From sequence record OR352953.1: a stretch of 64,000 bases of DNA. One strand, written 5' to 3'. The translations under genes were made by a program, and so were the position numbers. Below, one piece after another: positions 2,210 through 19,788 of this stretch. The notes under the pieces were generated by a model, which worked only from the letters and a program-made list of their open reading frames with translations, was not told the DNA's origin and made no database searches. The first letter of the stretch is position 1. Each line of letters begins with the position of its first letter. Origin of the DNA: Escherichia phage AV123.

Positions 2210-2309
2210 TAGGTTTTATAGTTGTACGCTTTAAAGGCTTGACAATTTTTTGTTATGCTTTAAACTATATCTTGAAAACGGCAAAGGCCGCAAACAAAAG
2301 GGTAAAATT

Positions 2310-2695: not shown

Positions 2696-2715
2696 CTTAA
2701 CAGAAGAGATAAGCT

Positions 2716-3000
2716 ATGAAGATCACAAAAGCACTTTCCAACTATGCAGCACGTCGCGGATTATGTTTAACCGTTGAAAATTTAGGGAAAGAAGATTTTT
2801 TGTGCTTTTGGGAGCTTGAGAATGATAATGAGTGGATCTTCTCTTATTCTATCTGCGAAGATCAAAACGGTTGTTTATTAACCTGGCGCGGTAATATCTA
2901 TCTACCGGAAGAAATCAAAGAAGAATTACCAGGCACGATCATGACTGAGAAACAGCTTAAGGAAGTGATCAATTTTGTAGGGCAAAACATTAAAAAATAA
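2716..3000 (+). CDS. hypothetical protein (94 aa)
   Basis: track ORF; cassette upstream. Confidence 0.6.
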   Translation: MKITKALSNYAARRGLCLTVENLGKEDFLCFWELENDNEWIFSYSICEDQNGCLLTWRGNIYLPEEIKEELPGTIMTEKQLKEVINFVGQNIKK

Positions 3001-3001
3001 T

Positions 3002-3061
3002 TTGACACTAGGCAAACAACGTAGTAAAGTTTATCACATAGGGCGGGAAATGGTTTCCCGC
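3002..3061 (+). promoter_or_regulatory. early promoter-hairpin cassette (-35 TTGACA 3002-3007, -10 TAAAGT, hairpin GGCGGGAAA-TGG-TTTCCCGC 3042-3061)
   Basis: same hexamers, spacing and hairpin as other cassettes. Confidence 0.55.
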
Positions 3062-3084
3062 TCACAACAGAAGAGAAACAAATC

Positions 3085-3255
3085 ATGATCCCAACTATGT
3101 TTTATGTATCGCGCAAAGGTCACAATATTTTTTGGTCTGAAGATTTAAATGAAGCCATGACGTTTGCCCGTGATCGTGTTGCTATCGGTGGCGTTAACAT
3201 TACTGTAACCGATGAAAACGGCATTGAATACTATAACGGCGACGATGAAGAGTAA
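3085..3255 (+). CDS. hypothetical protein (56 aa)
   Basis: ATG 3085 after cassette and AGAAGAG RBS-like; below the 60-aa cut-off of the ORF track. Confidence 0.5.
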   Translation: MIPTMFYVSRKGHNIFWSEDLNEAMTFARDRVAIGGVNITVTDENGIEYYNGDDEE

Positions 3256-3262
3256 TTAATAA

Positions 3263-3283
3263 GGCGGGGGAGTATTCCCCGCC
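3263..3283 (+). promoter_or_regulatory. intercistronic GC hairpin (GGCGGGGGA-GTA-TTCCCCGCC) without recognisable promoter
   Basis: perfect inverted repeat between stop 3255 and ATG 3303. Confidence 0.45.
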
Positions 3284-3302
3284 GTCAATAAAGAGGTAAA
3301 TC

Positions 3303-3572
3303 ATGAAAATATCTTTGGACGTTGCAATCAAGGCCATTGAATCCGGTTACACCCTGGTAAAAGATGATAAGGCTAAAACCGTGCACCACGTTAACAAGGA
3401 AACAGGCGAAAGCATGATCACATATAAAACCGCCTATTTTCTCCAATCAGTAGCAGATCCGCGCGTACAACGCCAGGTTACGGCGGCTATTGCTAAAAAA
3501 TTATGTGCTTTACAGGGTACAAGTTTTAACGAGATCGCCCCGTGTTTTGACTGGTCGAGCTTGAAAAAATAG
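3303..3572 (+). CDS. hypothetical protein (89 aa)
   Basis: track ORF; AAAGAGG RBS. Confidence 0.6.
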   Translation: MKISLDVAIKAIESGYTLVKDDKAKTVHHVNKETGESMITYKTAYFLQSVADPRVQRQVTAAIAKKLCALQGTSFNEIAPCFDWSSLKK

Positions 3573-3573
3573 T

Positions 3574-3629
3574 TTGACAACAATTATAAATCGGGTAGAA
3601 TGTATTTCGTAGGGCGGCAATAGTGCCGC
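3574..3629 (+). promoter_or_regulatory. early promoter-hairpin cassette (-35 TTGACA 3574-3579, -10 TAGAAT, hairpin GCGGCA-ATAG-TGCCGC 3614-3629)
   Basis: sigma70-like hexamers; hairpin variant. Confidence 0.5.
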
Positions 3630-3652
3630 TCACAACTAAAAGAGAAATCAGC

Positions 3653-3847
3653 ATGGCGCTTAAAAAACTAACAAGCAATACTCGTTGGGATGAAATCGAC
3701 GGAGAAGTTTACATTTTCGCCCGTAAACCAGGTGATCAAAAATGGTCTAAGGCTTTTACTTGCCACCCTGCAACAATAGACCTGATAAAAAGGGAAGGTT
3801 TACGTGAAGCGGTAGCAAGAAGTTTACTGATCCCTTATAAAAAATAG
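3653..3847 (+). CDS. hypothetical protein (64 aa)
   Basis: in-frame ATG inside track ORF 3623..3847, placed after the hairpin and AAAAGAG RBS. Confidence 0.55.
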   Translation: MALKKLTSNTRWDEIDGEVYIFARKPGDQKWSKAFTCHPATIDLIKREGLREAVARSLLIPYKK

Positions 3848-3910
3848 TTTGACAATACGCGGTTATCTGGTAAAGTGTACGACATAGGGCGGGGCAATAA
3901 GGCAACGCCC
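3848..3910 (+). promoter_or_regulatory. early promoter-hairpin cassette (-35 TTGACA 3848-3853, -10 TAAAGT, imperfect GC hairpin 3887-3910)
   Basis: hexamers with 17-nt spacer; GGGCG...CGCCC stem. Confidence 0.45.
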
Positions 3911-3928
3911 ATTAATGAGGGTAGAATC

Positions 3929-4033
3929 ATGTTAGAGAAAATTTTCACGGTTGTAATAGTTGGCCTGGCGTTATCGGTTGGATTGGTTGCAACTATGGCT
4001 AACATGATCCTATCTTCCCACGGTATTGGATAA
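3929..4033 (+). CDS. small membrane peptide (34 aa)
   Basis: ATG 3929 after GAGGG RBS-like; MLEKIFTVVIVGLALSVGLVATMANMIL is hydrophobic. Confidence 0.4.
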   Translation: MLEKIFTVVIVGLALSVGLVATMANMILSSHGIG

Positions 4034-4043
4034 GGTGAATCAA

Positions 4044-4259
4044 ATGATCACGAATAAGACAGGTAAAACAGAATTTTTACGCGGCTTGCAAATAGGTAAA
4101 CCTGAGATCTGGCATTGCACTAAATCCGCGCATAATGAAATGAAAGATTTTACCGCTACTTTACAACGTGTTAAAATATCTATCACGCAGAAAAAAGCCT
4201 TGTTAGTAGTAGAAAACGAGATACCGCAAACCATTATTATTGTCGAGCGTACAGCATGA
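4044..4259 (+). CDS. hypothetical protein (71 aa)
   Basis: in-frame ATG of track ORF 4026..4259 with AAGGTGA RBS. Confidence 0.5.
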   Translation: MITNKTGKTEFLRGLQIGKPEIWHCTKSAHNEMKDFTATLQRVKISITQKKALLVVENEIPQTIIIVERTA

Positions 4260-4642
4260 AAACTGAAATCATTATTGAAATCATCAACGGTTATAAAGAA
4301 GCCTTTATTTTTGCTGAATCAGCCAGGGATCATGAAGGCTATTTTATTGATAACTTAGACGATTATGATTTTTCAGATCAAGCCCATCAGCGGATCATTC
4401 ATGACGTAGCGGCTTATTGTGATGCCAATGATGCTGCTATCTCTGAGGCAATGAGCGACGGCGCTACAGCAAACCAGATCGGGAATGATTTACATTTTAC
4501 CCGTAACGGTCACGGCGTAGGCTTTTGGGATCGCCCTGAAATATACACTACTAACACCGCCAACCGCCTAACAAATGCAGCTAAATTAATGCCATCGGTG
4601 CATGCTTACATTGGTGAAGATAATTTGATTTATATTGAATAA
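4256..4642 (+). CDS. hypothetical acidic protein (128 aa)
   Basis: track ORF; ATGA start/stop overlap with upstream gene. Confidence 0.55.
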   Translation: MKTEIIIEIINGYKEAFIFAESARDHEGYFIDNLDDYDFSDQAHQRIIHDVAAYCDANDAAISEAMSDGATANQIGNDLHFTRNGHGVGFWDRPEIYTTNTANRLTNAAKLMPSVHAYIGEDNLIYIE

Positions 4643-4648
4643 AAAGTA

Positions 4649-4707
4649 TTGACACCGATCCCCAATATGTTATTATTTACCACGTAGGCGGGAAATGGTT
4701 TCCCGCC
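4649..4707 (+). promoter_or_regulatory. early promoter-hairpin cassette (-35 TTGACA 4649-4654, -10 TATTAT, hairpin GGCGGGAAA-TGG-TTTCCCGCC 4687-4707)
   Basis: hairpin identical to 365-385. Confidence 0.55.
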
Positions 4708-4730
4708 AGGTAATCAAAAAGGTAAATACT

Positions 4731-5120
4731 ATGCGCAACCTGGTTTCTGTTTCTAACGTTGAAAAATTCCAATCTTTACAGGGTATCGTTAACAACGTAG
4801 CGCCTTTTTTAGTCAATGGCTTGATTGCAAAGATGAAAAATAAACATCATGCGGCATGGTCTGCTTACTGCTTTGATAATGATGAAAAAGCGGCTGAAAT
4901 GATGTTAAATATGCTGTTAGACAGTGTAGAATCATCTTTACCGGAAAACATCGCAGAAGAGATCACCTATCGTTATAATATGGCGATCACTTACCAGGAG
5001 GTTGCGCAATTTAATATGATGGATGATGACGAACAACAGGATCAGGAAATGTTCTGGGAGTATGCAGATCGTCAATCGGCTTTTGATGAAAAGTTAGCGA
5101 TGTATTATAACGAATATTAA
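4731..5120 (+). CDS. hypothetical protein (129 aa)
   Basis: in-frame ATG of track ORF 4695..5120 located after the hairpin. Confidence 0.55.
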   Translation: MRNLVSVSNVEKFQSLQGIVNNVAPFLVNGLIAKMKNKHHAAWSAYCFDNDEKAAEMMLNMLLDSVESSLPENIAEEITYRYNMAITYQEVAQFNMMDDDEQQDQEMFWEYADRQSAFDEKLAMYYNEY

Positions 5121-5133
5121 TACACGGTAAAAG

Positions 5134-5162
5134 AAAGGGGCGCACTAAGCGCCCTTTTTTGT
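5134..5162 (+). terminator. rho-independent terminator (GGGCGC-ACTAA-GCGCCC + TTTTTT)
   Basis: GC stem plus T-run after stop 5120; same family as 924-947. Confidence 0.65.
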
Positions 5163-5504
5163 ATTCTTTTTCACAATGGAAGCGACACGTAAAGAATAGG
5201 CGTAAAGGTGGCGTAAAACCATCTAAAACCGACTGTAACCGCTTAAACAAGGTAGGAATGATTAATCACCTTACCAGGATGAAAAAGCTGTTATAAAGCT
5301 ATCTAGAGCGTTTAAAGCACATAGGAAATAATTTGCTTTTTATCTTGCCTTTTATCCTGCTTTTGATTATTATTATGGAACGGGCGGCACCTGGGGACAG
5401 GGGAAGATAATCACCGGAAGATCCCGCTATATATTAATAGCTAATACCTATCAAACAACAAAACATCAAAGGAATAAACTATCAAATCTTTACAATCCTA
5501 CCTA

Positions 5505-5564
5505 TTGACACCGGATCGCCCTTATACTAAGATGTATCACGTAAGGCGGGAAGTGGTTTCCCGC
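5505..5564 (+). promoter_or_regulatory. early promoter-hairpin cassette (-35 TTGACA 5505-5510, -10 TAAGAT, hairpin GGCGGGAAG-TGG-TTTCCCGC 5545-5564)
   Basis: same architecture as other cassettes. Confidence 0.55.
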
Positions 5565-5583
5565 TCAATATAGGAATCATATC

Positions 5584-5814
5584 ATGATCGAACAAATTAA
5601 ACGCGCTGAAGCTATTAACGGCAATGTGATCTATTCTGTCAGCAATAACGAAAAAGGCGTACCCTATGCAGCGGTGATAGTACAGCCTGACGGTGATTAT
5701 TGGTTTACTGTATACGGATCTTATTCTTTTGGGCGTCCAGTACATGATAAAATTTTGAAAGTAGCTAATCCCACTGGGAAGAATATCACAGTAGAAAAAT
5801 TTTTTGAAAAATAA
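5584..5814 (+). CDS. hypothetical protein (76 aa)
   Basis: track ORF after cassette. Confidence 0.6.
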   Translation: MIEQIKRAEAINGNVIYSVSNNEKGVPYAAVIVQPDGDYWFTVYGSYSFGRPVHDKILKVANPTGKNITVEKFFEK

Positions 5815-5889
5815 CTTGCTTTATAGCCTCTGTTAACTTATAGTTATCGTGTAGGGCAAACAATTTTAAACGGTAAACGAGGAATCACC

Positions 5890-6273
5890 ATGAGCAATAT
5901 CATCAACCTGGCGGCTACTGTAAACGGTAAAGACTTTAACGGCGCTGTAGACCGTGATCCTATGTGGTGCTTGTCAGTGTTTAAAGGTGACTTGGTTGAA
6001 GTTAGAACAACCGAAGGGTATAGCGATGATTATAAATGCGAGATCCATTTACACAACTGGTACACGGGTAAAACTTATGCACTGAATCATGCGTTTATCG
6101 GCAAGGTTGAATATAGAGAAATGATCGACGAAGAAACGGGGCAAGATTTTAGCGAGCATGTTTATATTCGTTCAGAAACATTAGCCGAACGTTTGATCGA
6201 GAAAATGAAAGCAAAAAATAAAATTAATTTATCTCATTGGATTGATATAACAAACGATCCAGCTTATCAGTAA
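5890..6273 (+). CDS. hypothetical protein (127 aa)
   Basis: track ORF; GAGGAA RBS. Confidence 0.6.
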   Translation: MSNIINLAATVNGKDFNGAVDRDPMWCLSVFKGDLVEVRTTEGYSDDYKCEIHLHNWYTGKTYALNHAFIGKVEYREMIDEETGQDFSEHVYIRSETLAERLIEKMKAKNKINLSHWIDITNDPAYQ

Positions 6274-6287
6274 ATAACATTTCAAAC

Positions 6288-6316
6288 AAGGGCGCTTATT
6301 GCGCCCTTTCTTTTTA
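6288..6316 (+). terminator. rho-independent terminator (AGGGCGC-TTATT-GCGCCCT + TTTCTTTTT)
   Basis: GC stem plus T-run; third member of the GGGCGC terminator family. Confidence 0.65.
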
Positions 6317-6520
6317 CCTAAATAAAGATGATAGCTTTTACCTATCAAAAACGTTCACCGAAAAAAGTGAATAGATCGCGGTATCGAGCTAATCAAGGAG
6401 CAGATGAACAACCATACCATGAAGATCATAAGGCGCTTACAACGTGTTTTAGACCGCTTATTTTTAATTTCTTCATGTAATTACCTGGCAAAAACAGCCT
6501 TTTTCTTGTCTTTCCTCTTA

Positions 6521-6600
6521 AATGATAATCATTCTTATTTATAGCTGATTATTTATGCAATAAATTGCATAATGCAATAATGAGAATCATTCTTAACTTA
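6521..6600. repeat. direct repeats AATGA(T/G)AATCATTCTTA (x2, ~57 bp apart) flanking palindrome ATGCAAT-AA-ATTGCAT
   Basis: seen directly in sequence; motif resembles Fur-box hexamer arrays. Confidence 0.5.
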
Positions 6601-6974
6601 AGACCATCTAACCTATAAAATAATAAGTTATCTAACTAAATTAAAACTAATTATCTCACCTTTATTTATAACTTACTGTTACTATCTCATTGATAACATT
6701 GTATTAAACAATAATAACTAATATAAATCATTACTAAGCTAAATATAATCTATCTAACCCTTAAAACTACAATTATAATCTATCGAATTGTTGCACAAAG
6801 TAACTATTAAATTGTTAGTAACATTACTAAATAATTCACATCCTATCTATTTATGATCTAATCTTTACCTTCCTATCTATTACTTAGATAATCATTTCAT
6901 ACAGTAACCATTTCATGTAGTAATCATTCCATACAATAACTATAACAAGAAATATAATTCGCAAGCGTATCATT

Positions 6975-7147
6975 AGCAGCCTATGCCGGACACATAGGCG
7001 GCTAATAATAACGCAACTACACACCCCACATAATAACCATCACCGATAGTTATTATTTGTGCTTATGTAGCTTGCAACAATTGCAAGCGCAACAATATAC
7101 TAGGGTATATTGTATCCCTTACATTGTTGCGGTGCGTTATTATTAGC
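6975..7147. other. nested multi-hairpin element (candidate structured ncRNA or replication/packaging element)
   Basis: outer 12-bp pairing TAATAATAACGC (7003-7014) with GCGTTATTATTA (7134-7145) enclosing perfect hairpins ATAATAAC/GTTATTAT, GCTTGCAA/TTGCAAGC and ACAATATAC/GTATATTGT; GCCTATG/CATAGGC hairpin just upstream (6979-6999). Confidence 0.4.
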
Positions 7148-7436
7148 TAATGTTTAGAACATTGGCTATAATATAAGCTATCCAATAATAAACATGGTGA
7201 ATAATGACACTGATGATCATAATGCGCCACCCTCCAGGGGGCGCTATGTGAACACAAAGAAATCTTTCTTGTCAAGAAAAATATCACCATTATTGCGCAA
7301 AATTATTTATATCTGAATAGATGATTTTTCATACTATTGCCCCCTTGATTATTACCATTTGTTGAGCCTACTTTCTTAAAAGCGCAATAAAATAGAATTA
7401 TATTGATTTTTAGTCGGTTTTATAGTACAGAAAGTA

Positions 7437-7458
7437 TGCAAATGATAATCATTATCAG
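7437..7458. promoter_or_regulatory. Fur-box-like operator (AATGATAATCATTATC)
   Basis: 16 contiguous nt identical to the 3' part of the enterobacterial Fur consensus GATAATGATAATCATTATC; related copies at 6521, 6578 and 7624-7654. Confidence 0.3.
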
Positions 7459-7773
7459 CTATCTTCCACGGGTGGCACTATTTCACACCAGATCATTTCA
7501 TTTGGCAAGGTGTATATAGATGTTTAGACTTGCCAAGCCATTGATTTCCTTAGAATTTATCTGTTTTGTTGTGAGTAGTACCTTTCTTGCTTAGAAAATA
7601 ATCAAAAGTCTTATAAGTCATTGAATGATAATACAAATGATAATTATTCTCATTGATATTTGAGGGGGACGGTCGGCAGAAATCGGGGGGTGCTGAAAAT
7701 CGCGTTAAGCACCTCTCGCAAGCGAGCAGTATTTTGCGGCAAGTTATTGATATTATTGACTTTACGCTTATGA

Positions 7774-7881
7774 AAAGGGGGTGTGTCGAAATAAATCGGG
7801 TATACCGGAAAATTTTTGTGGCATAGATATTTATTTGTCTATATTATGTACAAAGGGGTGTGTTAAAAATAATAGGTATAT
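7774..7881. repeat. two ~30-bp direct repeats AAGGGG(G)TGTGT-N-AAATAA-N-GGTATA
   Basis: copies at ~7774-7804 and ~7852-7881 upstream of first gene of next block. Confidence 0.45.
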
Positions 7882-8013
7882 ATAGAATAATTGATAGGGA
7901 ATATCTATACTAATTCCTCCATTAATGATATTCCTATGCTACTGCTCTTGTAATAGATGAAAAGACGCTGTATGATGTGTGGCATGAAACGTAAACTTAT
8001 AAAGGAGTCTGAT

Positions 8014-8379
8014 ATGTGTGTTCCTCTTAGCAGTCCACTGCTGTTAGAATTTTACAAAGCATGGATGCAAGATCATTCCTCAATGCATCGTGAGAATGTT
8101 GGTTTGTGTATTTGCCTTATGGATTATCTGGCAACCACTATGTCAAAGAAAAAACCTACGCGAGAAGATATAGAACATTTCAAAATGGTTCGCAGTAAAA
8201 CGCTGGAAGAGATGAAATTGCAATTCACGTGTGCTGGGCTATCCTCCTTCCTGCCCTTTAATGATGATCTTCTGTGTTATGAAGATGAAGGTAAGAAACA
8301 TTCTTGCCATACTAACCCAGGGAGATTGCAGTGGGTGAAAGACAGACTCGAAGATGCAAATAATGCTTGCATTGAATAG
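8014..8379 (+). CDS. hypothetical protein, paralogue family A (LLxFY ... GLCxCLxDxL ... HPFN ... RxQWVxDR)
   Basis: in-frame ATG of track ORF 7957..8379 with AAGGAG RBS; shares motifs with 10160..10528 and 11152..11736. Confidence 0.55.
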   Translation: MCVPLSSPLLLEFYKAWMQDHSSMHRENVGLCICLMDYLATTMSKKKPTREDIEHFKMVRSKTLEEMKLQFTCAGLSSFLPFNDDLLCYEDEGKKHSCHTNPGRLQWVKDRLEDANNACIE

Positions 8380-8449
8380 AAATGCCTGTACACTGTGTTC
8401 CATAAGATATGCAATATCGCGCATAACAAACTACTAATGAGAGGTGTAA

Positions 8450-8767
8450 ATGAGAACCTTAGCTTTGTATATTGATCCTCACTCCATTCGAGAAATGCGA
8501 GATGTACAACAGGATTATGAATTCTACCCAGAAATTTGTGAACGCTATGAAACTATTCTTAGTTCTGTAGAAGATCCAGATACTAGTGAAACAGGTGTTT
8601 CCCACTTACTGTGGATGTTGAATGAAATTCAGGATGGGTGTAATGATATGTCTGAAACCAAACGCCATCGTTGGCTAGGCTATATTCAGGGTGTTATGGT
8701 TATGAAAAACCTTATTACAGTGAATGATGAACGTAATGCTACACGCCCCGTCTTTAATGGAGCATAA
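8450..8767 (+). CDS. hypothetical protein (105 aa)
   Basis: track ORF; GAGAGG RBS. Confidence 0.55.
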   Translation: MRTLALYIDPHSIREMRDVQQDYEFYPEICERYETILSSVEDPDTSETGVSHLLWMLNEIQDGCNDMSETKRHRWLGYIQGVMVMKNLITVNDERNATRPVFNGA

Positions 8768-8768
8768 C

Positions 8769-8984
8769 ATGAAAAGCATTCAGGTGTGTATTGAAAATAA
8801 TTGTGGTTATCTGGGATTGACACATGTTGCTTTCCCTCTTATGTTAGATGCCGATATCGCTTACAGCGGAGTTGCTTATGTGTCATTCAAGACAATGAGC
8901 CAAGTACCTGGCTGGAAGTGGGAAGTAGTTGATGTTGTTGAAGGAGAAGACTATGTTTTCCTTCCACACGAATATACTGTTTAA
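8769..8984 (+). CDS. hypothetical protein (71 aa)
   Basis: in-frame ATG of track ORF 8724..8984 directly after upstream stop. Confidence 0.5.
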   Translation: MKSIQVCIENNCGYLGLTHVAFPLMLDADIAYSGVAYVSFKTMSQVPGWKWEVVDVVEGEDYVFLPHEYTV

Positions 8985-8998
8985 AAGAGGAAAAGAAG

Positions 8999-9175
8999 AT
9001 GGATAAAGAGACTACTGTGTACTTAGTAACAAAGAATACCCCAGGCTGGAGCCAATGCAGCACTGTACCTTACAAAATCTGTGCAACACTAGAACTAGCA
9101 CAACGTGCAGAAGCAGAAGTGAATGCCATGCAATACAGCTATGGTGAAATCATTCCTTTTACTCTTGAACAATAA
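8999..9175 (+). CDS. hypothetical protein (58 aa)
   Basis: ATG 8999 with AAGAGGAAAAG RBS; not in track (<60 aa). Confidence 0.45.
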   Translation: MDKETTVYLVTKNTPGWSQCSTVPYKICATLELAQRAEAEVNAMQYSYGEIIPFTLEQ

Positions 9176-9186
9176 GGAGTTGTGTA

Positions 9187-9639
9187 ATGTTTGAAATTGG
9201 TAAAGTGTATCGTTTTAAAAACCCATCTTATATCCGTAAGTTTGCTAACGTGTCTGAGTGCAATAGCAGGATTGCTTCTTTTTTAGGTGATTCCTATTTT
9301 CGTGTATTAGATGTGGATGATTGGTATGGTGTCACTGCTTTGCAATCCTTAGCAGGAGAACAAGAAATTATCGCTCAAAATGAAGGAGACTTTCTTCAGT
9401 GTTACACGTTGCTTGCAAAAAGTGAGTTTGAGTATTTTGTAGAAGTTTTAGAGGAAGCACCAAAAAGTAAACACGAAGAGAAATACCTGCTTGTAGTGGA
9501 TGGAGTTCCGATCATGGAAACCATCTCCCGTGAGGAAGTTGAAAAAGAGGCGAAACGTTACAAGCTGAATCGTACACAGAGTGTAGTTGAAGTCTATTCT
9601 CTTGTTGGTGTTGCAGATATTAGTGTGAACATTGTATAA
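9187..9639 (+). CDS. hypothetical protein (150 aa)
   Basis: track ORF; AAGGAG RBS. Confidence 0.6.
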   Translation: MFEIGKVYRFKNPSYIRKFANVSECNSRIASFLGDSYFRVLDVDDWYGVTALQSLAGEQEIIAQNEGDFLQCYTLLAKSEFEYFVEVLEEAPKSKHEEKYLLVVDGVPIMETISREEVEKEAKRYKLNRTQSVVEVYSLVGVADISVNIV

Positions 9640-9850
9640 TATATGTGTAATGACAGATACATTCTTCGTGTATCTGATAAGTCCCCTATGTTTGACTGGC
9701 GGGCTGGTGGCTACTAGCTCCGATGCAAGGTCTGACAGACGTGGAAAAGGAGGCTTATGTGTATACAAAAGAAGAGATAGAAAGTAGCCTTTATTTGACA
9801 GATAACATTAAGAATGGTATCTTTGAGTGTAAATTGAAAGGAGAGGAAGA

Positions 9851-10150
9851 ATGACTATTACAGAAAAACTGCGCTGTATTGCAAAGCAAAGTGGAGAAGG
9901 CTTATGGTTTCCTATTGAGGAAATTATTCAGGACTGTTATGATCAGGCTAAGACTGGCAAATACTCCAAAGCATTTAAACCATCTGTTTTCGGTTTGGAT
10001 GATTATCCAAAAAATGAACAAGCAAAGAAACGACAAGTTGATTTGATTGATCTGGCTATGGAAGCACTACGAGAGCATGGACTTAGTAAGGTGTATGCTT
10101 TAAACACCAAAGAGGGCTTTGTAGATTCAGTGATCGTAGACTGGTATTAA
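9851..10150 (+). CDS. hypothetical protein (99 aa)
   Basis: track ORF; AGGAGAGG RBS; TTGACA promoter-like hexamer at ~9797. Confidence 0.6.
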
Positions 10151-10159
10151 GGAGAAGTC

Positions 10160-10528
10160 ATGCAAGAGAATAGTAAAGTGTGTAGCATGAAAAGCAGCCC
10201 CTATTTGCTACAATTTTATGAGTGGTGGTTAGAACAAGAAGATACAAACTTTAGCAAAAAGCATTATGGTCTTTGCACGTGTCTTGTAGACTTCTTATAC
10301 AATATTGCTTGGATAAAAGATGTTGAGAATGTAGCAAACCTCCAGTCCTCTGTACGAGAGGAAATGAAGGAACAGTTTAAGAAAGCGGGTTTGAACCATT
10401 TACACCCATTTAATACAGATTTCTCACATTACTTTACGGAAACAGAGTTAGGCATTGCACACCTTAACAAAGAACGTGTACAATGGGTGATTGATCGTAT
10501 TCGTGATATGGAGGAATACAATGGTTAA
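10160..10528 (+). CDS. hypothetical protein, paralogue family A
   Basis: track ORF; AAGGAG RBS; motifs LLQFY, GLCTCLVDFL, HPFN, RVQWVIDR shared with 8014 and 11152 genes. Confidence 0.6.
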   Translation: MQENSKVCSMKSSPYLLQFYEWWLEQEDTNFSKKHYGLCTCLVDFLYNIAWIKDVENVANLQSSVREEMKEQFKKAGLNHLHPFNTDFSHYFTETELGIAHLNKERVQWVIDRIRDMEEYNG

Positions 10529-10739
10529 GTTTAAAACTTTCTGTGCGATTACTGTTTGCCTTATTCTTGCATACGTGTTATTCTCTGGTATCGTTCGTTT
10601 AGGCGAGTATATGGCAAGAGAAGCTCGTGAAAGTGCAGCTAAAAAAGAACAGTGTATTGTGTTCAAGCATCAAAGAGATGCTGAAAAGTTTCTCGCACTT
10701 GATTGTAATCGCTATGTATCTTATCAAATGTATGAGTAA
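10521..10739 (+). CDS. small single-pass membrane protein, paralogue family B
   Basis: in-frame ATG with GGAGGA RBS; TM segment then EQCIVFKHQRDAEKFL, similar to 15233..15457. Confidence 0.55.
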   Translation: MVKFKTFCAITVCLILAYVLFSGIVRLGEYMAREARESAAKKEQCIVFKHQRDAEKFLALDCNRYVSYQMYE

Positions 10740-10748
10740 GGAGGATTT

Positions 10749-10973
10749 ATGGTAAAACGTCTGGAATGGGATGCGTGTACTGCTCACGCTTGTCACTGTG
10801 ATATTGTTGAAGACCCTAATGGAGAAATGGTGTATTATGAGGATTACGAAGCATTGCATAATGCTGTGATCGCTTTACTGGATGATATTAGCTCACGCTA
10901 TCCAGGACAACAGTTTACGTGTCCACATATCCAACTGTTAGCCAAACTTACGGAGTATCCAAGTGTTCCATAG
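10749..10973 (+). CDS. hypothetical protein, paralogue family C (CDIV-DP-G ... DY)
   Basis: track ORF; AAGGAGG RBS; N-terminal region similar to 16109..16381. Confidence 0.55.
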   Translation: MVKRLEWDACTAHACHCDIVEDPNGEMVYYEDYEALHNAVIALLDDISSRYPGQQFTCPHIQLLAKLTEYPSVP

Positions 10974-11151
10974 TATGGGTATCCCTGAACAACTGCTATT
11001 TATTGTAGGATTAGTAGGTTTATTGGCGGCTGGCGCTAAAGCCGCTTCTCACACGCATCACATAATGTTAAGATTTCTATTCCTACTCCCTTCTATCCTT
11101 GTATTATTAGTCATACTGATTGATAACATTTTTCACAATTAAGGAGAGGCT

Positions 11152-11736
11152 ATGAGTAAAGTTATACCAAGCAGTTATGAATTATTACAGTTTTATGTGT
11201 ATTATATAGACTGGGTTAGTAGATCGAATGTTAAAGACAATGCGATGTTTAGTAAAAACATCTGTTTAACAGAAAGTATCTTCCGTTACTGGCACACAGG
11301 TAGAAAGTGTACACACAGTGAAGCTATGCGCATTGTAGGAGAATATCTGGAGCAATTGCAAAAAGCAGAGCTACCTGTCCTTCACCCATTCAATGAATCT
11401 AAAGAAGAATTAGAACAAGAATGTAGGGAAGGTAAGTGCCATTTGAATGAAAAACGTATCGAATGGGTGAGGCAACGTTTAGCCGATGCAGGGAATCCTC
11501 CTAGTGACTCTGACTATACGTGGTATGATGTAGAGGGTTTAGTTCAAGGTTTTGAGGCTTGTGCTATAGGTAATACCAACTTTGCCAAAGTTTTATGCGA
11601 GGTTTATGATCTGGCAGATAAAATCCGAAATCACGGATGGAAACAAGAGCATAAAGAATCATATGAACGCCTTGACAAGATTTTCAAACAGATCTATTCT
11701 AACCACAAAGAGATGTTCCAAATGGAGGATGTGTAA
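11152..11736 (+). CDS. hypothetical protein, paralogue family A (longer, 194 aa)
   Basis: track ORF; AAGGAGAGG RBS; LLQFY, HPFN, RIEWVRQR motifs. Confidence 0.6.
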   Translation: MSKVIPSSYELLQFYVYYIDWVSRSNVKDNAMFSKNICLTESIFRYWHTGRKCTHSEAMRIVGEYLEQLQKAELPVLHPFNESKEELEQECREGKCHLNEKRIEWVRQRLADAGNPPSDSDYTWYDVEGLVQGFEACAIGNTNFAKVLCEVYDLADKIRNHGWKQEHKESYERLDKIFKQIYSNHKEMFQMEDV

Positions 11737-12422
11737 TGAAAGAGATTATGTTTGAAGGGCATCGTTACGAAGTTCCAGACAATGCAAATTTCATGGCTCG
11801 TGATATCACTGGAGATGTGTTCTGGTTTGAAGATGAACCTGTGTTTTCTTCGAACAAACACTGGTTTTCACAACAATCTTCTTCGGAAAATATGACTTTT
11901 GGCTACGTAGAGCCTAAAGTGCGCTGCAAAGCAGCTTCTTCTTTGGTAAAAATTTCCCAAGATGATCAAGAAAATACTCCAGATGTTGTTAGTGCACTAC
12001 TGAAATACATTGCAGAACTTGAGAATAAAATTAAAGAAGCAGAAACTAAGGTGAAAGCACGATCAGCCATCATTGAAGCTATGTCTGAACGTATCTTAGA
12101 GCTAGAAGATTTGTGTGGAGAGGCTTATCAAGTGGTCGGTGCACTGGCTTATGAAGCACAAATGTTTGAAACTTCAGAACAAGTTTCACATATGTTAGAT
12201 AATTTAAGTGAATGTAAAATGATTCATGATGATGTATTGCCATTTTGTTGCAATGTTAACAAAACAGAGCAAACAGAAGATTCAGAAACAGTTTATGTTC
12301 CGCTGATGTGTGTTCCAGATCATTTAAAAGGTGTATTCTCTTGTAAATGGTCACTGTTGAGCGTTACTAATTGTGGTGAAAACTATTCTGCCAACATTGA
12401 ATTGCTAAAACACGTTAAATAA
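11736..12422 (+). CDS. hypothetical protein (228 aa) with central coiled-coil-like segment
   Basis: track ORF; ATGA overlap with upstream gene. Confidence 0.6.
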   Translation: MKEIMFEGHRYEVPDNANFMARDITGDVFWFEDEPVFSSNKHWFSQQSSSENMTFGYVEPKVRCKAASSLVKISQDDQENTPDVVSALLKYIAELENKIKEAETKVKARSAIIEAMSERILELEDLCGEAYQVVGALAYEAQMFETSEQVSHMLDNLSECKMIHDDVLPFCCNVNKTEQTEDSETVYVPLMCVPDHLKGVFSCKWSLLSVTNCGENYSANIELLKHVK

Positions 12423-12432
12423 GGAGAGTAAT

Positions 12433-12837
12433 ATGTGGTCTGTTAAAATCAAATATAATGCGCAGTATTATGGTGGAAAGCCTTACGAAGTTGTTATTTG
12501 TGACTGTATCTCTAAAGAAGTTGCACAGCTTTGTGGCACTGGTGTTAGTGAAGCTATGAACAAAATGCATAACTCGACTGTGCGTTACCTGGATCAAGAT
12601 ATTCCAGAAGATGTAAATGACTATGCTTACGAAGTTATTTACAGTGAAGGTAAGAAGCTCTCTATTGAAGATGCACTTAAAGCACTACCTGCTATGTGCA
12701 GCCCAACACCAGAAGCAGTTAAAGAGATTTTACCAGAATCCAACCCCGATGAATATGCCTCTATGGTTGCTTCAGACATGTGGAATCTCTGTCGAGAAAC
12801 TATGATTAAAAATCTTGTGGAAATGGCGCATGAGTAA
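12433..12837 (+). CDS. hypothetical protein (134 aa)
   Basis: track ORF; AAGGAGAG RBS. Confidence 0.6.
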   Translation: MWSVKIKYNAQYYGGKPYEVVICDCISKEVAQLCGTGVSEAMNKMHNSTVRYLDQDIPEDVNDYAYEVIYSEGKKLSIEDALKALPAMCSPTPEAVKEILPESNPDEYASMVASDMWNLCRETMIKNLVEMAHE

Positions 12838-13048
12838 AACACACTTTATACATCCGTTTGATCCAAAGAACAAGGCGGTTATACACCGCCGTTGGACTGA
12901 AACGCGCATTACAAAATGTCCTGTGCCAGCAGCACAGGAATATAACAAAACATATAAAGCAGAATTTGTGGAGTACACCTTTGTAAATAACAAAGGGAAG
13001 GAGGTTTATGTTCCAGAATACTGCCTTTGGATAAAATGGGAGGAATAA
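12830..13048 (+). CDS. hypothetical protein (72 aa)
   Basis: in-frame ATG of track ORF 12815..13048. Confidence 0.45.
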   Translation: MSKTHFIHPFDPKNKAVIHRRWTETRITKCPVPAAQEYNKTYKAEFVEYTFVNNKGKEVYVPEYCLWIKWEE

Positions 13049-13215
13049 TGCAAACATTTTTTATCGACAAGTTCAATAAAAGTATGAATACGTGGATGGC
13101 AACATTCACTATGCAATTTGCGTCATTTAAAGAAGCTCAAGAATGGTGCGATCAACACAAGGATTTTGATTTTTACTATCAAGTTAATGCAAACCTTTCT
13201 CCAGAGGAGAAATAA
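13048..13215 (+). CDS. hypothetical protein (55 aa)
   Basis: in-frame ATG of track ORF 13027..13215 with GGGAGG RBS. Confidence 0.45.
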   Translation: MQTFFIDKFNKSMNTWMATFTMQFASFKEAQEWCDQHKDFDFYYQVNANLSPEEK

Positions 13216-13216
13216 T

Positions 13217-13561
13217 ATGTTGGCTGATATTGAAATCCTTATGTACCGACAAGGTATGATCAAAATGTGGCTAGATTCTTTTAGCAACATATACTGCACA
13301 GTACGATCAGCAGACGAGCGTAAAACGCTTATTTTATCTGCTATTGTTGACAAACAACGTTTCTTCAAAGAAGTTTTGCAAACAGGCTTCTCCGATGCAG
13401 GAGTAGAGATTGCAACGCTTAGTCTTGGAGTGCTGTCTTACTTGGAATCCGTTGTTTTATATGTCTTCTCTTTAGAAGAACACTTGCAATTCAAAGCATT
13501 AAAACTTATCTTAGATGCTGCAATTGACATAGAACAAAATCGAATTGATTCTTTTGAATAA
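13217..13561 (+). CDS. hypothetical protein (114 aa)
   Basis: in-frame ATG of track ORF 13118..13561 with GAGGAG RBS. Confidence 0.5.
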   Translation: MLADIEILMYRQGMIKMWLDSFSNIYCTVRSADERKTLILSAIVDKQRFFKEVLQTGFSDAGVEIATLSLGVLSYLESVVLYVFSLEEHLQFKALKLILDAAIDIEQNRIDSFE

Positions 13562-13577
13562 AAATAAGGAGGAAACT

Positions 13578-14036
13578 ATGCAAGAGGTTAAACATTATCC
13601 ACATGGTCGTAGTTTTGTAGCTGTATGGCATGTTCCTGCTCGTAATGAACTATTTTGTGCATCTTTTCATTACAAAGATGGACAATATTTCACCTATGAC
13701 GAAACGATGGATGATTTTATCCCAGAGTGCGATCATGGGTATACACCAATGTTCTTTAAACGTATGAAAGCTCGTTTCTTCGTTACAGATGTTGATGGTG
13801 AACCTACTTGGCACATCGAAGAAGATTGGCAAGATTCTGTAGATATTAAAGAAGCCCCAGAATGGGCTACATTACTGGTACACGTCAAAACCCCTACTCT
13901 TGACGTTATGGCGTGGGTTAATCATGATGATACCCATTACCAATACATAAATGGTAGCACAGAGATTTCTGGTGAGATTATTGGTCGTTGGAAGCCTACG
14001 AATCAGGTTGCTATTGTCGGGTATAAGACAGTATAA
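13578..14036 (+). CDS. hypothetical protein (152 aa)
   Basis: in-frame ATG of track ORF 13545..14036 with AAGGAGG RBS. Confidence 0.6.
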   Translation: MQEVKHYPHGRSFVAVWHVPARNELFCASFHYKDGQYFTYDETMDDFIPECDHGYTPMFFKRMKARFFVTDVDGEPTWHIEEDWQDSVDIKEAPEWATLLVHVKTPTLDVMAWVNHDDTHYQYINGSTEISGEIIGRWKPTNQVAIVGYKTV

Positions 14037-14037
14037 T

Positions 14038-14232
14038 ATGAAAAATAGTGTAGATTGGGATGATTTATCCGATTTTGAAAAATGGTTCTTAGGTAGTGGT
14101 TGTTATGCAGATGGGGATCTCGAAAGAGATCCTTCTGGAAATTACATTATGCCATTAACCCAAGGTTTTTATGAGTGCTGGTGCGCAGCACAAAACAACG
14201 TACTGAATAAGGAGACAACACAATGCAATTAA
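14038..14232 (+). CDS. hypothetical protein (64 aa)
   Basis: in-frame ATG of track ORF 13951..14232 immediately after upstream stop. Confidence 0.45.
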   Translation: MKNSVDWDDLSDFEKWFLGSGCYADGDLERDPSGNYIMPLTQGFYECWCAAQNNVLNKETTQCN

Positions 14233-14462
14233 ACATCGGACAACCAATTTTTGATGCAGATACTGGTCAATATGCAGTGATTGTTGCTCGTATGAGCGGT
14301 GATGACCTTATTGTTTCAGAACTACTCGGATCAGATCCGCAACTGCGCGTAGTATGTGATCTATATCTTCGAGACGAAAGTGATCGCATTGCACTGAAAG
14401 AAGATGGTATGCTCTACTATACCTGGACTAGAGATCCTGGGGTAACGGAGGTAGAGGTATAA
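14223..14462 (+). CDS. hypothetical protein (79 aa)
   Basis: track ORF; AAGGAG RBS. Confidence 0.55.
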   Translation: MQLNIGQPIFDADTGQYAVIVARMSGDDLIVSELLGSDPQLRVVCDLYLRDESDRIALKEDGMLYYTWTRDPGVTEVEV

Positions 14463-14761
14463 TGGTAAGGAATAGGGGTTTACATAAAAGAAGACACCTT
14501 ACTTACTGGCATCGTAAAGTACATGAACCTGTATCAAAGAAAGAATGGCAATATCTGCCTTATGGGAAGGAGCGAAGAAAGTATCTGTTAGCTCACTTAA
14601 GGGTACATGGTTCTCTTCCTGTTAACAGTAAGTGGCAATTGCAAACAGCTTATGACGAAGATATGAAATATCTGTTAAAGAGAGGCATTATTTGCCTTGT
14701 TAAGATCGGACGATGGAAATCTCGTCAATCTTATATCGTACTTAAACAGGAGAAACGATGA
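14462..14761 (+). CDS. hypothetical highly basic protein (99 aa), possible nucleic-acid binding
   Basis: track ORF; K/R/H-rich composition. Confidence 0.5.
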   Translation: MVRNRGLHKRRHLTYWHRKVHEPVSKKEWQYLPYGKERRKYLLAHLRVHGSLPVNSKWQLQTAYDEDMKYLLKRGIICLVKIGRWKSRQSYIVLKQEKR

Positions 14762-15009
14762 ATATCAAAGATGTTGTAGCATACGTAGAAGATGAAGTTA
14801 AAAACCATACAAGTTTACTGAAAGTAATGGTTGTGGTTAAAGATGGTATTGGACAAGTAAACGTACAACATGTCTTATCTGACACTGTATACAATGTGTT
14901 TGAATGTAAAGAAACACCTCATGGAGTACGTGTGGTTTATATTGATAACAATTTCAAAGAATGTGTGAGACATACCTTAGAAAATGAACTAAGGATCACA
15001 ATCTTATGA
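14758..15009 (+). CDS. hypothetical protein (83 aa)
   Basis: track ORF; ATGA overlap. Confidence 0.5.
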   Translation: MNIKDVVAYVEDEVKNHTSLLKVMVVVKDGIGQVNVQHVLSDTVYNVFECKETPHGVRVVYIDNNFKECVRHTLENELRITIL

Positions 15010-15179
15010 GTTATTATGTTGTACCTTATGCCAATAAGTGGAGAGTAAGAGAAACTTGTTTTCTATTCTCCTGGTGGGCTACGTTCGGAGATGGTTGTGG
15101 AAATGATACAGGAAAGCCTGTAGAGTACGACACAAAAGAAGAATGTGAACAATGGATAAAATTAACACAAAGATGTTGA
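15006..15179 (+). CDS. hypothetical protein (57 aa)
   Basis: ATG 15006 overlapping upstream stop (ATGA); not in track (<60 aa). Confidence 0.4.
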   Translation: MSYYVVPYANKWRVRETCFLFSWWATFGDGCGNDTGKPVEYDTKEECEQWIKLTQRC

Positions 15180-15232
15180 CACGATCTTAACTTCTTGTTA
15201 GTATCAATGTGTACTAACGATAAGGAGGGTTT

Positions 15233-15457
15233 ATGAAGTCTGTAAACAAGTTGCAACAATTTTTGTTATCAACAGCAATCTTTTTGCTTTTGTTAATTGG
15301 TATTCTGTATGGTGCATCTAACTTATACAATCTACATAGTGATGTAGAACAGAATAAAGAGAAGTGCATCATTCTAAAACACAAGAAACAAGCAGAAGAT
15401 TTCTTAAAGAATAAGTGTTACAACTACATTGATTATGAGGAGACAAACAATGATTAA
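15233..15457 (+). CDS. small single-pass membrane protein, paralogue family B
   Basis: track ORF; AAGGAGGG RBS; TTGACA promoter ~15176; EKCIILKHKKQAEDFL motif shared with 10521 gene. Confidence 0.6.
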   Translation: MKSVNKLQQFLLSTAIFLLLLIGILYGASNLYNLHSDVEQNKEKCIILKHKKQAEDFLKNKCYNYIDYEETNND

Positions 15458-15692
15458 AGAATTAGGTATGCGAGTATACAGTGAGTGGACTCCAAGCAAT
15501 GGCCCAGGAGTTGTTGCAGCTAAATGTATCAATGGTCGTATTGAGTACCTGGAAGGGTATGAAGATAATGAAGAGTTAGTAGATTATGCTAAATCTTTTA
15601 TTGAAGATGATACAGACTTTATTGTATTATATGATACAGGAGAGTTAGAGTATGGATATGATGGAGATGGGGATATCTTTGAACTTCAATAA
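15450..15692 (+). CDS. hypothetical acidic protein (80 aa)
   Basis: in-frame ATG of track ORF 15429..15692 with GAGGAG RBS. Confidence 0.5.
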   Translation: MIKELGMRVYSEWTPSNGPGVVAAKCINGRIEYLEGYEDNEELVDYAKSFIEDDTDFIVLYDTGELEYGYDGDGDIFELQ

Positions 15693-15899
15693 GAGTAGTA
15701 AGTAAGGTATAAAGAGTATATAGTTAGTTATAGAGTTAGTAACATTACATATACTCTTTCCATGTATAACATGGAATATTCTCTACCTCGCTATCGCTCG
15801 GTATATAAGATTAGGGTAGCATGTTTTTTACGAAAAGTAAAACTGTTTATACCGATTGATAGCAGGTTTTTAATAGATTCTATCTATGAGGAGTAGAAA

Positions 15900-16118
15900 G
15901 TGTACAAATTATATAAAGGAAAAGATAAGTTTACGGGTAATACATCTGGTTTCTATGTAACACCACGTGGCGTTGCCGTATTTGATTGGATTCCTGGTAC
16001 TCCAGATCGTGAAATGATCTCTCTTGTAAAACTGTCGGAACAAGAGTACACTTACGGTGACATTACAACATTCTATTCTCGTGCAGAAAATCCAAAACTG
16101 ATTGCGGAGTGGGAATAA
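15900..16118 (+). CDS. hypothetical protein (72 aa), GTG start
   Basis: track ORF; GAGGAG RBS; long inverted repeat AAAGAGTATAT/ATATACTCTTT in upstream spacer. Confidence 0.5.
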   Translation: MYKLYKGKDKFTGNTSGFYVTPRGVAVFDWIPGTPDREMISLVKLSEQEYTYGDITTFYSRAENPKLIAEWE

Positions 16119-16381
16119 TGGTTACACGATATGATTTAGAGGTGTACAGCCAAGGTGCTGCTGGTCAATGTGATATTGTACCAGATCCAGAAGGAGACTA
16201 TGTTCTTCTTGCTGATTACAACAAGCTAGAAGAAAGACTTCTGGCTGTGTATGCTAAAGAGAACAAAACAATCTGTCCTTATTGCAATGGAATGGGTTGG
16301 GTTGTTGCAGATGTTGGACAAATGTATGAATGTGTGCCTTGTAAAACCACAGGATTTATTGAAAAGGATACTGACAAATGA
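16109..16381 (+). CDS. hypothetical protein, paralogue family C, C-terminal CxxC...CxxC zinc-ribbon
   Basis: track ORF; CDIVPDPEGDY motif shared with 10749 gene; CPYC and CVPC pairs. Confidence 0.55.
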   Translation: MGIMVTRYDLEVYSQGAAGQCDIVPDPEGDYVLLADYNKLEERLLAVYAKENKTICPYCNGMGWVVADVGQMYECVPCKTTGFIEKDTDK

Positions 16382-16626
16382 CTGTAGCAGATAAAATGAG
16401 AGAACTGGCAGAAAACGCAGAACTTAACAAAGCAAAGGAGAGTTTACAAAATATCTACGCGTATATTGAGAGAGCAGCTAAAGATGGAGACAGAGAAGTT
16501 GCTATATACACGCTTTATCCAACTTTCGCAAAAGTTAGCTTGGATGCTGAAGGTTTTTCAACTTTTATTGATACAGAAACATCTCATTACGATGAAAACT
16601 TTACTCGAATAGTTATTCGATGGTAA
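16378..16626 (+). CDS. hypothetical protein (82 aa)
   Basis: track ORF; ATGA overlap. Confidence 0.5.
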   Translation: MTVADKMRELAENAELNKAKESLQNIYAYIERAAKDGDREVAIYTLYPTFAKVSLDAEGFSTFIDTETSHYDENFTRIVIRW

Positions 16627-19378: not shown

Positions 19379-19384
19379 CACATA

Positions 19385-19408
19385 AACCCGCTTCGGCGGG
19401 TTTTCTTG
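19385..19408 (+). terminator. rho-independent terminator (CCCGC-TTCG-GCGGG + TTTT)
   Basis: tetraloop hairpin and T-tract after stop 19378. Confidence 0.65.
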
Positions 19409-19674: not shown

Positions 19675-19754
19675 ATGACTTTACTAGAGAGTATCGTAGT
19701 GTTAATCATCTTTATCATTGTTGTCATAGGATATTTTACAGAGGACTAAAATAA

Positions 19755-19788
19755 AGCCCCTAGAATCACTTCTAGGGGCTTTTGTTTG
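19755..19788. terminator. bidirectional terminator hairpin (AGCCCCTAGAA-TCAC-TTCTAGGGGCT + TTTGTTTG) at convergence of + and - gene blocks
   Basis: 11-bp perfect stem with T-run; lies between last + gene and first - gene. Confidence 0.6.

Follow-up and report, generated by a model that had tools for sequence, protein, structure and literature searches.

How did three sets of related small genes come to lie near one end of a phage genome, and what do their products do? The genes occupy positions 8014–16381 of the window, which is the whole 64,000-nucleotide (nt) stretch of Escherichia phage AV123 DNA analyzed here (sequence record OR352953.1). Seven open reading frames (ORFs) are involved, assigned to family A (A1, A2, A3), family B (B1, B2), and family C (C1, C2; Table 1). 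An earlier reading of the nucleotide sequence (the original prediction) described them as early genes of a T-even-like phage, arisen by segmental duplication and encoding possible host-takeover or anti-defense factors under diversifying selection. The best explanation overall is probably a different one, namely that they are ancient, conserved paralogues whose products would be dispensable accessory or host-directed early proteins.

Homology Within the Three Families

The seven ORFs were confirmed where they had been placed, except that C2 starts at ATG 16118 in related genomes, which corrects the GTG at 16109 chosen earlier. The motifs LLxFY, GLCxCL, (H/L)PFN, and RxQWVxDR are present in A1 and A2 and in part in A3, E(Q/K)CI(V/I)xKHxxxAExFL is present in B1 and B2, and CDIVxDPxG...DY is present in C1 and C2. 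BLASTP aligns A1 with A2 (39% over 115 amino acids [aa], E 5e-26), A2 with A3 (30% over 114 aa, E 2e-11), A1 with A3 (E 3e-9, limited to the C-terminal third), B1 with B2 (46% over 28 aa, E 5e-9), and C1 with C2 (36% over 44 aa, E 7e-7). Because these pairs had been picked after many ORFs were scanned, an all-versus-all comparison of the 449 window ORFs of at least 35 aa served as a control; the five pairs are within its top six non-overlapping hits, with database-corrected E-values of 7e-24 to 3e-4. In Smith–Waterman shuffle tests, the scores observed for the five pairs are not attained in any of 2000 shuffles (Gumbel p ≤ 2e-6), and cross-family control pairs remain at chance level (p 0.65–0.9). 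A search with hidden Markov models (HMMs) found no additional family members in the window.

The B and C alignments are short, and the hydrophobic segment of family B could inflate scores, which might suggest that the similarities are chance or compositional artifacts, or that the ORFs are not genes. However, the B tails alone, with the hydrophobic segment removed, are likewise matched by none of 2000 shuffles (p 5e-8), and PHROG profiles cross-match inside each family (phrog_2510, 27059, and 6418 in family A; phrog_15662 and 23204 in family B; phrog_23083 and 22955 in family C). The ORFs also carry ribosome-binding site (RBS) motifs, over 50 genomes contain annotated orthologues of them, and their ratios of nonsynonymous to synonymous substitution rates (dN/dS) are far under 1. 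An origin by chance or artifact is ruled out by the shuffles, the PHROG cross-matches, and dN/dS, and its probability is negligible. The motif families originally predicted are thus homologous, with significant support from BLASTP, the all-versus-all control, the shuffles, and PHROG, and the contiguity of A2, B1, and C1 (10160–10973) was also borne out.

Phage Identity and Selection on the Seven Genes

Window positions 8000–16400 are 96–98% identical, over 100% of their length, to genomes of the genus Justusliebigvirus (PATM, Paula, EmilieFrey, UAB_1), and about 55 E. coli phages of this genus match the region at full length. Gene order is collinear with that of phi92 and EmilieFrey, and a counterpart of the 343-bp terminal repeat is present. 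These matches identify the phage as a Justusliebigvirus (phi92-like, subfamily Stephanstirmvirinae), an E. coli myovirus. The T-even-like affiliation assumed earlier is not borne out: the matches are to Justusliebigvirus at about 98%, and no T-even record is among the hits.

Selection was measured as pooled pairwise Nei–Gojobori dN/dS over up to seven Justusliebigvirus genomes, which gives gene-wide and not site-level values (Table 1). The least constrained of the seven genes are A1 and the B genes; none has a value near 1, and neighboring genes span the same range (0.02–0.34). All seven ORFs are real coding genes under purifying selection. The gene-wide values across related phages (0.03–0.29) contradict the diversifying selection that had been proposed.

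Table 1. Family genes and associated features of the window, with their phi92 equivalents and gene-wide dN/dS values
Feature	Position	Strand	phi92 equivalent	dN/dS	Remarks
A1	8014–8379	+		0.22	First gene past the terminal repeat; chimera of A1a body and A1b end
A2	10160–10528	+	gp006	0.07	Identified by BLASTP; phrog_2510; six helices in structure model
A3	11152–11736	+	gp010	0.08	Divergent domain (residues 5–113) and 80-aa C-terminal extension; phrog_27059, E 2e-138
B1	10521–10739	+	gp007	0.29	Identified by BLASTP; hydrophobic segment and ~45-aa tail with C-x17-C
B2	15233–15457	+	gp022	0.20	Signal peptide or signal anchor annotated, followed by C-x17-C tail
C1	10749–10973	+	gp008	0.03	Identified by BLASTP; phrog_23083, phrog_23941
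C2	16118–16381	+	gp025	0.10	Identified by BLASTP; N-terminal module and four-Cys DnaJ-type finger
Recombination junction	8329–8342	+			14-nt microhomology CAGTGGGTGAAAGA, encoding the conserved QWVKD motif
Counterpart of the phi92 343-bp direct terminal repeat	7365–7707				From alignment to phi92
Two bidirectional terminator-like hairpins	19384–19403 and 19753–19782				Close the rightward block starting at 8014

The Family A Domain

Family A proteins are acidic (median isoelectric point 5.3) and have a soluble domain of ~110 aa, which in the AlphaFold2 (AF2) model of A2 consists of six helices (predicted local distance difference test [pLDDT] score 88.6). Over this whole domain, A1, A2, and A3 match phrog_2510 (E 4e-22, 1e-25, and 2e-17, respectively), and they also match an HMM built here from 108 sequences (E 7e-30, 6e-34, and 1e-24). 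When the A1–A3 profile was run against 1.84 billion cluster representatives, 675 clusters (defined at 50% identity) were found at E ≤ 1e-3, and 125 at E ≤ 1e-10. The matched proteins are mostly free-standing and 100–120 aa long. Some are tandem fusions of two or three domains, and some are proteins of 250–400 aa in which other segments match EaA/EaD-annotated regions of P22-like Salmonella phages. By tblastn, family A occurs at 465 places in 177 phage records across unrelated phage groups, including Vequintavirinae, siphoviruses, and Erwinia and Rhizobium phages. Only one of 72,556 plasmid records carries the domain, and the idea that family A belongs to plasmid leading regions was dropped on account of this single match. 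A word-indexed homologue search retrieved near-identical clusters only (one for A2, four for C1).

Sequence searches of family A against Pfam, NCBIfam, PADLOC, and the PDB gave no match, also when the 108 aligned members were scanned, and no consistent family emerged when the seven proteins, ten family A fusions, ten neighboring genes, and the 108 members were compared with Pfam, NCBIfam, and PADLOC. The PADLOC scan of the seven proteins returned only a chance-level match to DzbA in the A3 tail (E 0.015). The structure model has no match among solved structures and no similarity to solved anti-defense structures (Ocr, Acb2, Tad1/2, AsiA, and others), and its structural matches in BFVD are all uncharacterized phage proteins. 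Family A is thus widespread and almost wholly confined to phages, has a fold without a solved relative, and lacks a Pfam family.

Column identity averages 24% over the 108 sequences. Cys39, Pro83, Phe84, and Arg106 are invariant; Tyr20, Trp109, Gln72, Asn103, and Glu68 are at least 91% conserved; and His101 is conserved in just 77%. The invariant residues and the conserved FY and WV motifs are all found in A1, A2, and A3. In the AF2 model, Cys39 and Asn103–Arg106 are located at helix N-termini. The 108-sequence HMM counts three family A copies in the window, four in EmilieFrey, seven in phAPEC8, and nine in phiWec186.

This pattern raises the question of catalysis. Family A could catalyze the modification of a host or phage molecule, Cys39 serving as nucleophile and Arg106, Asn103, Glu68, and Gln72 belonging to the active site, rather than work as a stoichiometric binder or inhibitor. 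The invariance of Cys and Arg, and the near-invariance of Glu, Gln, and Asn, in so divergent an alignment would agree with this, as would the position of Cys39 and Asn103–Arg106 in the model and the strong purifying selection on A2 and A3. However, family A has no structural or sequence similarity to known enzymes, His101 is incompletely conserved, all-helical domains of ~110 aa are more often binding modules, and tandem fusions and fusions to coiled-coil scaffolds of the Ea22/EaA type are typical of such modules. The enzyme explanation is therefore rather unlikely, although the two kinds of evidence lean in different directions: the pattern of polar residues together with low dN/dS leans toward a conserved ligand or catalysis, and the tandem and scaffold fusions lean toward a binding module.

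The A1 Locus

A1 is preceded by an RBS (AAGGAG, 6 nt upstream) and corresponds, in DNA alignment, to the body of one tandem copy (A1a) followed by about the last 12 codons of a second (A1b). The two genes are adjacent in EmilieFrey (L001 3015–3383 and 3383–3751), and A1 was aligned to both. Its blastn high-scoring segment pairs cover positions 1–644 and 1002–1148 of the reference and overlap at the microhomology listed in Table 1, and alignment columns 390–410 show the switch of parent sequence. A1 is thus the product of a 369-bp in-frame deletion between tandem paralogues, which joined A1a to A1b by unequal recombination after the tandem duplication.

The block begins with a tandem array both in Justusliebigvirus and in its sister genus Phapecoctavirus, with two genes in EmilieFrey and phAPEC8 and three in phiWec186. 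Within Justusliebigvirus, at least six alleles occur at this locus, containing no gene, one, or two, in flanking DNA that is at least 93% identical: both genes (EmilieFrey, inny); both genes separated by a 148-bp insert; the chimera (window, UAB_1, KKE7M, J-01, JohannJBalmer); a frameshifted chimera (ECGD1); A1b alone (muut); and neither gene, with two different junctions (phi92 and alia). Both genes are absent from arall as well. The alleles show that the head-of-block array expands and contracts through recombination between paralogues. Because natural phages with zero, one, or two copies are all viable, the head-of-block copies are dispensable for growth. A1b is 92–97% identical between Justusliebigvirus and Phapecoctavirus.

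Two further observations concern this locus. The 148-bp insertion between the tandem genes contains a 156-nt ORF in EC_OE_11 (L007 676–831) and is also found in Nernie, Eryne, and VivaForever. The gene at 8450–8767 (+), which adjoins the variable locus, is itself polymorphic in length: it encodes 105 aa in the window and in UAB_1, and 152–153 aa with a different N-terminal part in EmilieFrey, KKE7M, and phi92 (gp001).

Families B and C

The N-termini of B1 and B2 are basic and are followed by 19-residue hydrophobic windows (residues 7–25 and 10–28, with mean Kyte–Doolittle values of 2.55 and 2.41, respectively). In the phi92 record, SignalP 3.0 gives gp022, the equivalent of B2, a signal peptide with a probability of 0.985. 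The similarity between family members is mainly in the ~30 aa past the membrane segment, and the two Cys residues of the tail are kept, with their C-x17-C spacing, in all four lineages examined, including the Phapecoctavirus homologues. By tblastn, B2 is found in Justusliebigvirus only. The tail may thus be exported to the periplasm, where the two Cys residues could be disulfide-bonded.

C1 and C2 resemble each other only in the N-terminal ~45 aa, where Cys, Gly, Val, Asp–Tyr, and Leu residues are conserved, and family C reflects the sharing of a module, not duplication of a whole gene. The C1 tail has the motif RYPGQxFTCPH in common with Phapecoctavirus proteins of 148–152 aa. The C2 tail (CPYCNGMG...CVPCKTTG) has one exact CxxCxGxG repeat and one CxxCxxxG repeat, that is, four Cys residues for one zinc site, and this finger is common to small Phapecoctavirus proteins, some of which are annotated as "DNA ligase." It is similar to a single pair of zinc knuckles and differs from that of DnaJ, which has four repeats and two zinc ions, and C1 has no finger. 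Pfam searches leave C2 under the cutoffs for DnaJ_CXXCXGXG (PF00684; E 0.017, 15.8 bits, cutoff 32.7) and Anti-TRAP (PF15777; E 0.029, 14.8 bits, cutoff 32), and a sequence search of C2 against solved structures gave nothing meaningful. An alignment search with family C found relatives of the Stephanstirmvirinae type only, without names or Pfam domains.

C1 weakly matches the Lar-like phrog_3592 (E 8.7e-4, profile positions 4–50 of 182 only), which C2 does not hit; assignment of C1 as a Lar-like restriction alleviation protein is not convincing given this partial match and the lack of Pfam or NCBIfam support. The ORF at 15450–15692 was rejected as a third member of family C (shuffle p 0.06–0.12). 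In a 73-aa protein on a 1550-bp metagenomic contig (P0153), C1 residues 1–31 run, through a YED common to both, into the final 42 residues of that ORF. The protein is either a naturally occurring variant with a deletion of about 4.7 kb or a product of misassembly. The ORF at 36141–36287 (−) is weakly similar to the zinc-finger tail of C2 (E 0.004–0.005) and may be another CxxC finger mini-protein.

Origin and Age of the Copies

In a rough neighbor-joining tree of family A (104 columns, 30–50% identity, without support values), the head-of-block copies form one clade, which indicates that they were duplicated locally in tandem. A2 is placed with a metagenomic protein, to which it is 50% identical, and has 41–44% identity to the head-of-block copies; nothing compared is more than 36% identical to A3. 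A1, A2, and A3 thus do not appear to be each other's nearest relatives. In Phapecoctavirus, relatives of families A, B, and C occur in an order that differs between genomes, and no repeated A–B–C block is seen. The 8-nt overlap of B1 with A2 has a parallel in phAPEC8, where a B homologue overlaps the end of a family A gene; in phiWec186, one gene intervenes. A general A-then-B gene pair was considered and rejected, as it fails in the Vequintavirinae phage W70 and in a Klebsiella Stephanstirmvirinae phage.

Because the copies are deeply diverged and their Phapecoctavirus relatives have no repeated block, recent segmental duplication is not supported, and the module sharing in family C likewise speaks against the duplication of an A–B–C block that the original prediction suggested. 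In its full form, this explanation holds that the block was recently duplicated in a T-even-like phage and that its anti-defense products then diverged under diversifying selection in an arms race. The contiguity of A2, B1, and C1, with the other copies in the same order (A3, B2, C2), would be expected from it, as would the similar divergence across families (about 30–36% identity) and a 38-nt DNA stretch that is still 76% identical between C1 and C2. However, an identical order of three items has a chance of 1 in 6, ~3.5 kb of unrelated genes lie between A3 and B2, A3 is as distant from A2 as from the copies of other genera, and C1 and C2 have only the N-terminal module in common. Moreover, the Phapecoctavirus genomes examined carry all three families in varied orders, the phage is not T-even-like, and dN/dS is low in all seven genes. 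Recent block duplication is thus very unlikely.

A stronger competitor is the possibility that the copies came mostly by horizontal acquisition and mosaic recombination from a wider phage gene pool, and not by duplication within the lineage. Family A is very widespread among unrelated phages, the metagenomic protein is nearer to A2 than any copy in the same genome, and A3 is distant from everything compared. The high identity of A1b across two genera means recent exchange or unusual conservation, family C members join one module to different tails, and a natural fusion of C1 with the ORF at 15450–15692 exists in a metagenomic assembly. Against this, local duplication would predict the single clade and the physical tandem arrangement of the head-of-block copies; families B and C are found in Stephanstirmvirinae and a few other coliphage genera, so that an outside donor pool is not evident; and at such divergence ancient duplication in situ is inseparable from import with the trees built. 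Predominant import is the less probable account. The data fit ancient duplication, horizontal import, or both, and not recent segmental duplication.

Proposed Functions

If the seven genes are ancient paralogues for accessory or host-directed proteins, family A would provide a dispensable cytoplasmic accessory effector made very early in infection. One conserved putative pocket would bind or modify a conserved host ligand or protein, and the paralogues would differ in surface specificity. Family B would act on the envelope, for example in superinfection exclusion, and family C would be a small protein-binding adaptor.

Several points weigh against this explanation. The low dN/dS values and strong motif conservation speak against a binder engaged in an arms race, and an enzyme or a housekeeping-like phage function would account for them just as well. 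That the invariant polar residues come together in one pocket is conjectural, as are the periplasmic export and disulfide of the family B tail, and the AF2 model of C2 is unusable (pLDDT 45.5, from a 20-sequence alignment). The separation of A1, A2, and A3 depends on the short tree alignment described above. Early expression of the block is suggested by its position only, and a sigma-70 promoter scan was not enriched over shuffles (64 sites, 57 expected). Finally, literature searches on phi92 and Justusliebigvirus early genes, paralogues, anti-defense, and PHROG identifiers returned nothing on the seven genes.

A more ambitious combination of these elements can be put forward only tentatively. 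In it, family A would be an undescribed early-phage superfamily (LxxFY...GLC...PFN...RxxWV, six-helix fold) whose invariant Cys and Arg would form a pocket that binds or modifies a conserved host molecule. It would be a new class of host-takeover or counter-defense effector, used by large coliphages in three to nine diverged copies, and the tandem array that enters the cell first would serve as an "accordion" whose copy number changes by recombination. The translationally coupled pair A2 and B1, which has a counterpart in phAPEC8, could then be a module of two components, one in the cytoplasm and one in the envelope.

Genomic Setting

Positions 1–565 of phi92 align to window positions 7365–7927 with 96% identity, and the direct terminal repeat is annotated as 1–343 in both the phi92 and the UAB_1 records. 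Because the terminal repeat maps to 7365–7707, the window spans joined genome ends, with positions 1–7364 being the right end. By this alignment, the repeat counterpart is taken as the physical left end of the genome, and A1 as the first gene after the left repeat. Roughly 40 densely packed small genes between 8014 and ~19400 form a single rightward block of ~11 kb, preceded by an AT-rich, non-coding stretch of 1.7 kb. A terminator scan found 25 candidates (7.3 expected), including the two hairpins that close the block (Table 1), and the sign of the GC skew changes at about 20 kb. A Pfam scan of ten neighboring genes in the small-gene block gave no matches. The designation of the families as early genes therefore stands in part: the position just past the left terminal repeat and the one-directional arrangement fit early expression, and the promoter scan does not add to it.

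The palindromic motif AATGATAATCATT occurs four times in non-coding DNA upstream of the block (6521–6537, 6579–6595, 7441–7457, and 7636–7652), and two of these copies are inside the terminal repeat. The best site (7438–7456) has two mismatches to the 19-bp E. coli Fur-box consensus, for which 0.08 matches with three or fewer mismatches are expected by chance. These sites could place early transcription under iron- and Fur-dependent control, or they could represent a regulatory repeat peculiar to the phage.

Other observations concern individual genes and records. The phi92 gp009 gene corresponds to window positions 10975–11142 (+), between C1 and A3, and encodes 55 aa with two hydrophobic segments; together with B1 and B2, it makes several tiny membrane proteins encoded in the block. 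The annotated 44-aa ORF at 15762–15896 (+) has summed pairwise differences of 0 synonymous and 28 nonsynonymous over seven genomes, and may not be a real gene or may have evolved unusually. The ORF at 9723–9854 (+) encodes 43 aa, and the corresponding gene in EmilieFrey and phi92 (gp004) encodes 70 aa; a frameshift or a changed start has apparently removed the 5′ part of the copy in the window. The all-versus-all comparison also revealed another pair of paralogues (34628–35617 and 32356–33186, both on the minus strand; 28% over 162 aa, E 4e-7). Four GenBank records labeled "Campylobacter phage" (MG065639, MG065645, MG065656, and MG065689; A150, A145, C3, and A110a, respectively) are 97.5% identical over 95% of the region length, and are probably mislabeled or contaminant Justusliebigvirus genomes.

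Related Systems and Significance

Small orphan genes in multi-copy families are well known from the ends of phage genomes, and the present families belong to an ordinary class in this respect. The terminal-redundancy module of SPO1 and the pre-early genes of T5 are host-takeover modules in which small early genes are located at the genome ends. These are likewise dense, one-directional sets of small, mostly orphan genes beside a terminal repeat, and are likely to be first to enter the cell and to be expressed. They differ in that no homology to characterized takeover proteins was found here, and in that the phi92 repeat is only 343 bp long with the genes outside it.

In poxviruses, "gene accordions" are tandem expansions and contractions in the copy number of host-range genes. 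The tandem family A array resembles them in its allele series and in the two or three copies of the sister genus, but the family A copies are old (about 50% protein identity) and not recent, identical amplifications. T4 Imm, Sp, and RI and T5 Llp are small exported phage proteins. Family B appears comparable in its small size, N-terminal signal or anchor, presumably early expression, and presumed action in the envelope; it differs in that Pfam, PHROG, and PADLOC scans revealed no similarity, and C-x17-C is specific to family B.

The family A domain is also one module of the 250–400-aa proteins of temperate enterobacterial phages that are of the P22 EaA/EaD and lambda Ea22 type, and both the EaA/Ea22-type genes and the head-of-block copies of family A are located in non-essential regions. 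The phi92 record labels the neighboring gp011 and gp012 as "potential Eaa-like." In lambda Ea22, the N-terminal region is short, a coiled coil follows, and the C-terminal domain is described as variable and portable (PMC10834534). The window proteins have no Pfam hit at E ≤ 1 to the Ead/Ea22 family (Pfam Ead_Ea22; IPR025153), and it is only the family A module that they have in common with the EaA-type mosaic proteins.

The seven genes are already on record, as those of "hypothetical proteins," in over 50 phi92-like phages that have been sequenced, and also in PHROGs (phrog_2510, 27059, and 6418 for family A; phrog_15662 and 23204 for family B; phrog_23083, 22955, and 23941 for family C), which match all seven proteins with E-values down to 2e-138. 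All of these PHROGs are labeled "unknown function," each family is split among them, and paralogy, copy-number variation, and fold are not recorded there. What is new is a clear definition of the family A superfamily, which makes it a well-defined target for structural and functional work, and a series of natural alleles at the gene that comes first in the genome. This series comprises zero, one (chimeric or A1b only), and two head-of-block copies in otherwise near-identical phages, several of which are available in public collections (EmilieFrey, which is Bas61 of the BASEL collection, and JohannJBalmer; alia and muut from Danish wastewater). In addition, the family A domain connects the early regions of virulent phages with the EaA/Ea22 mosaic proteins, a poorly understood group from temperate phages.

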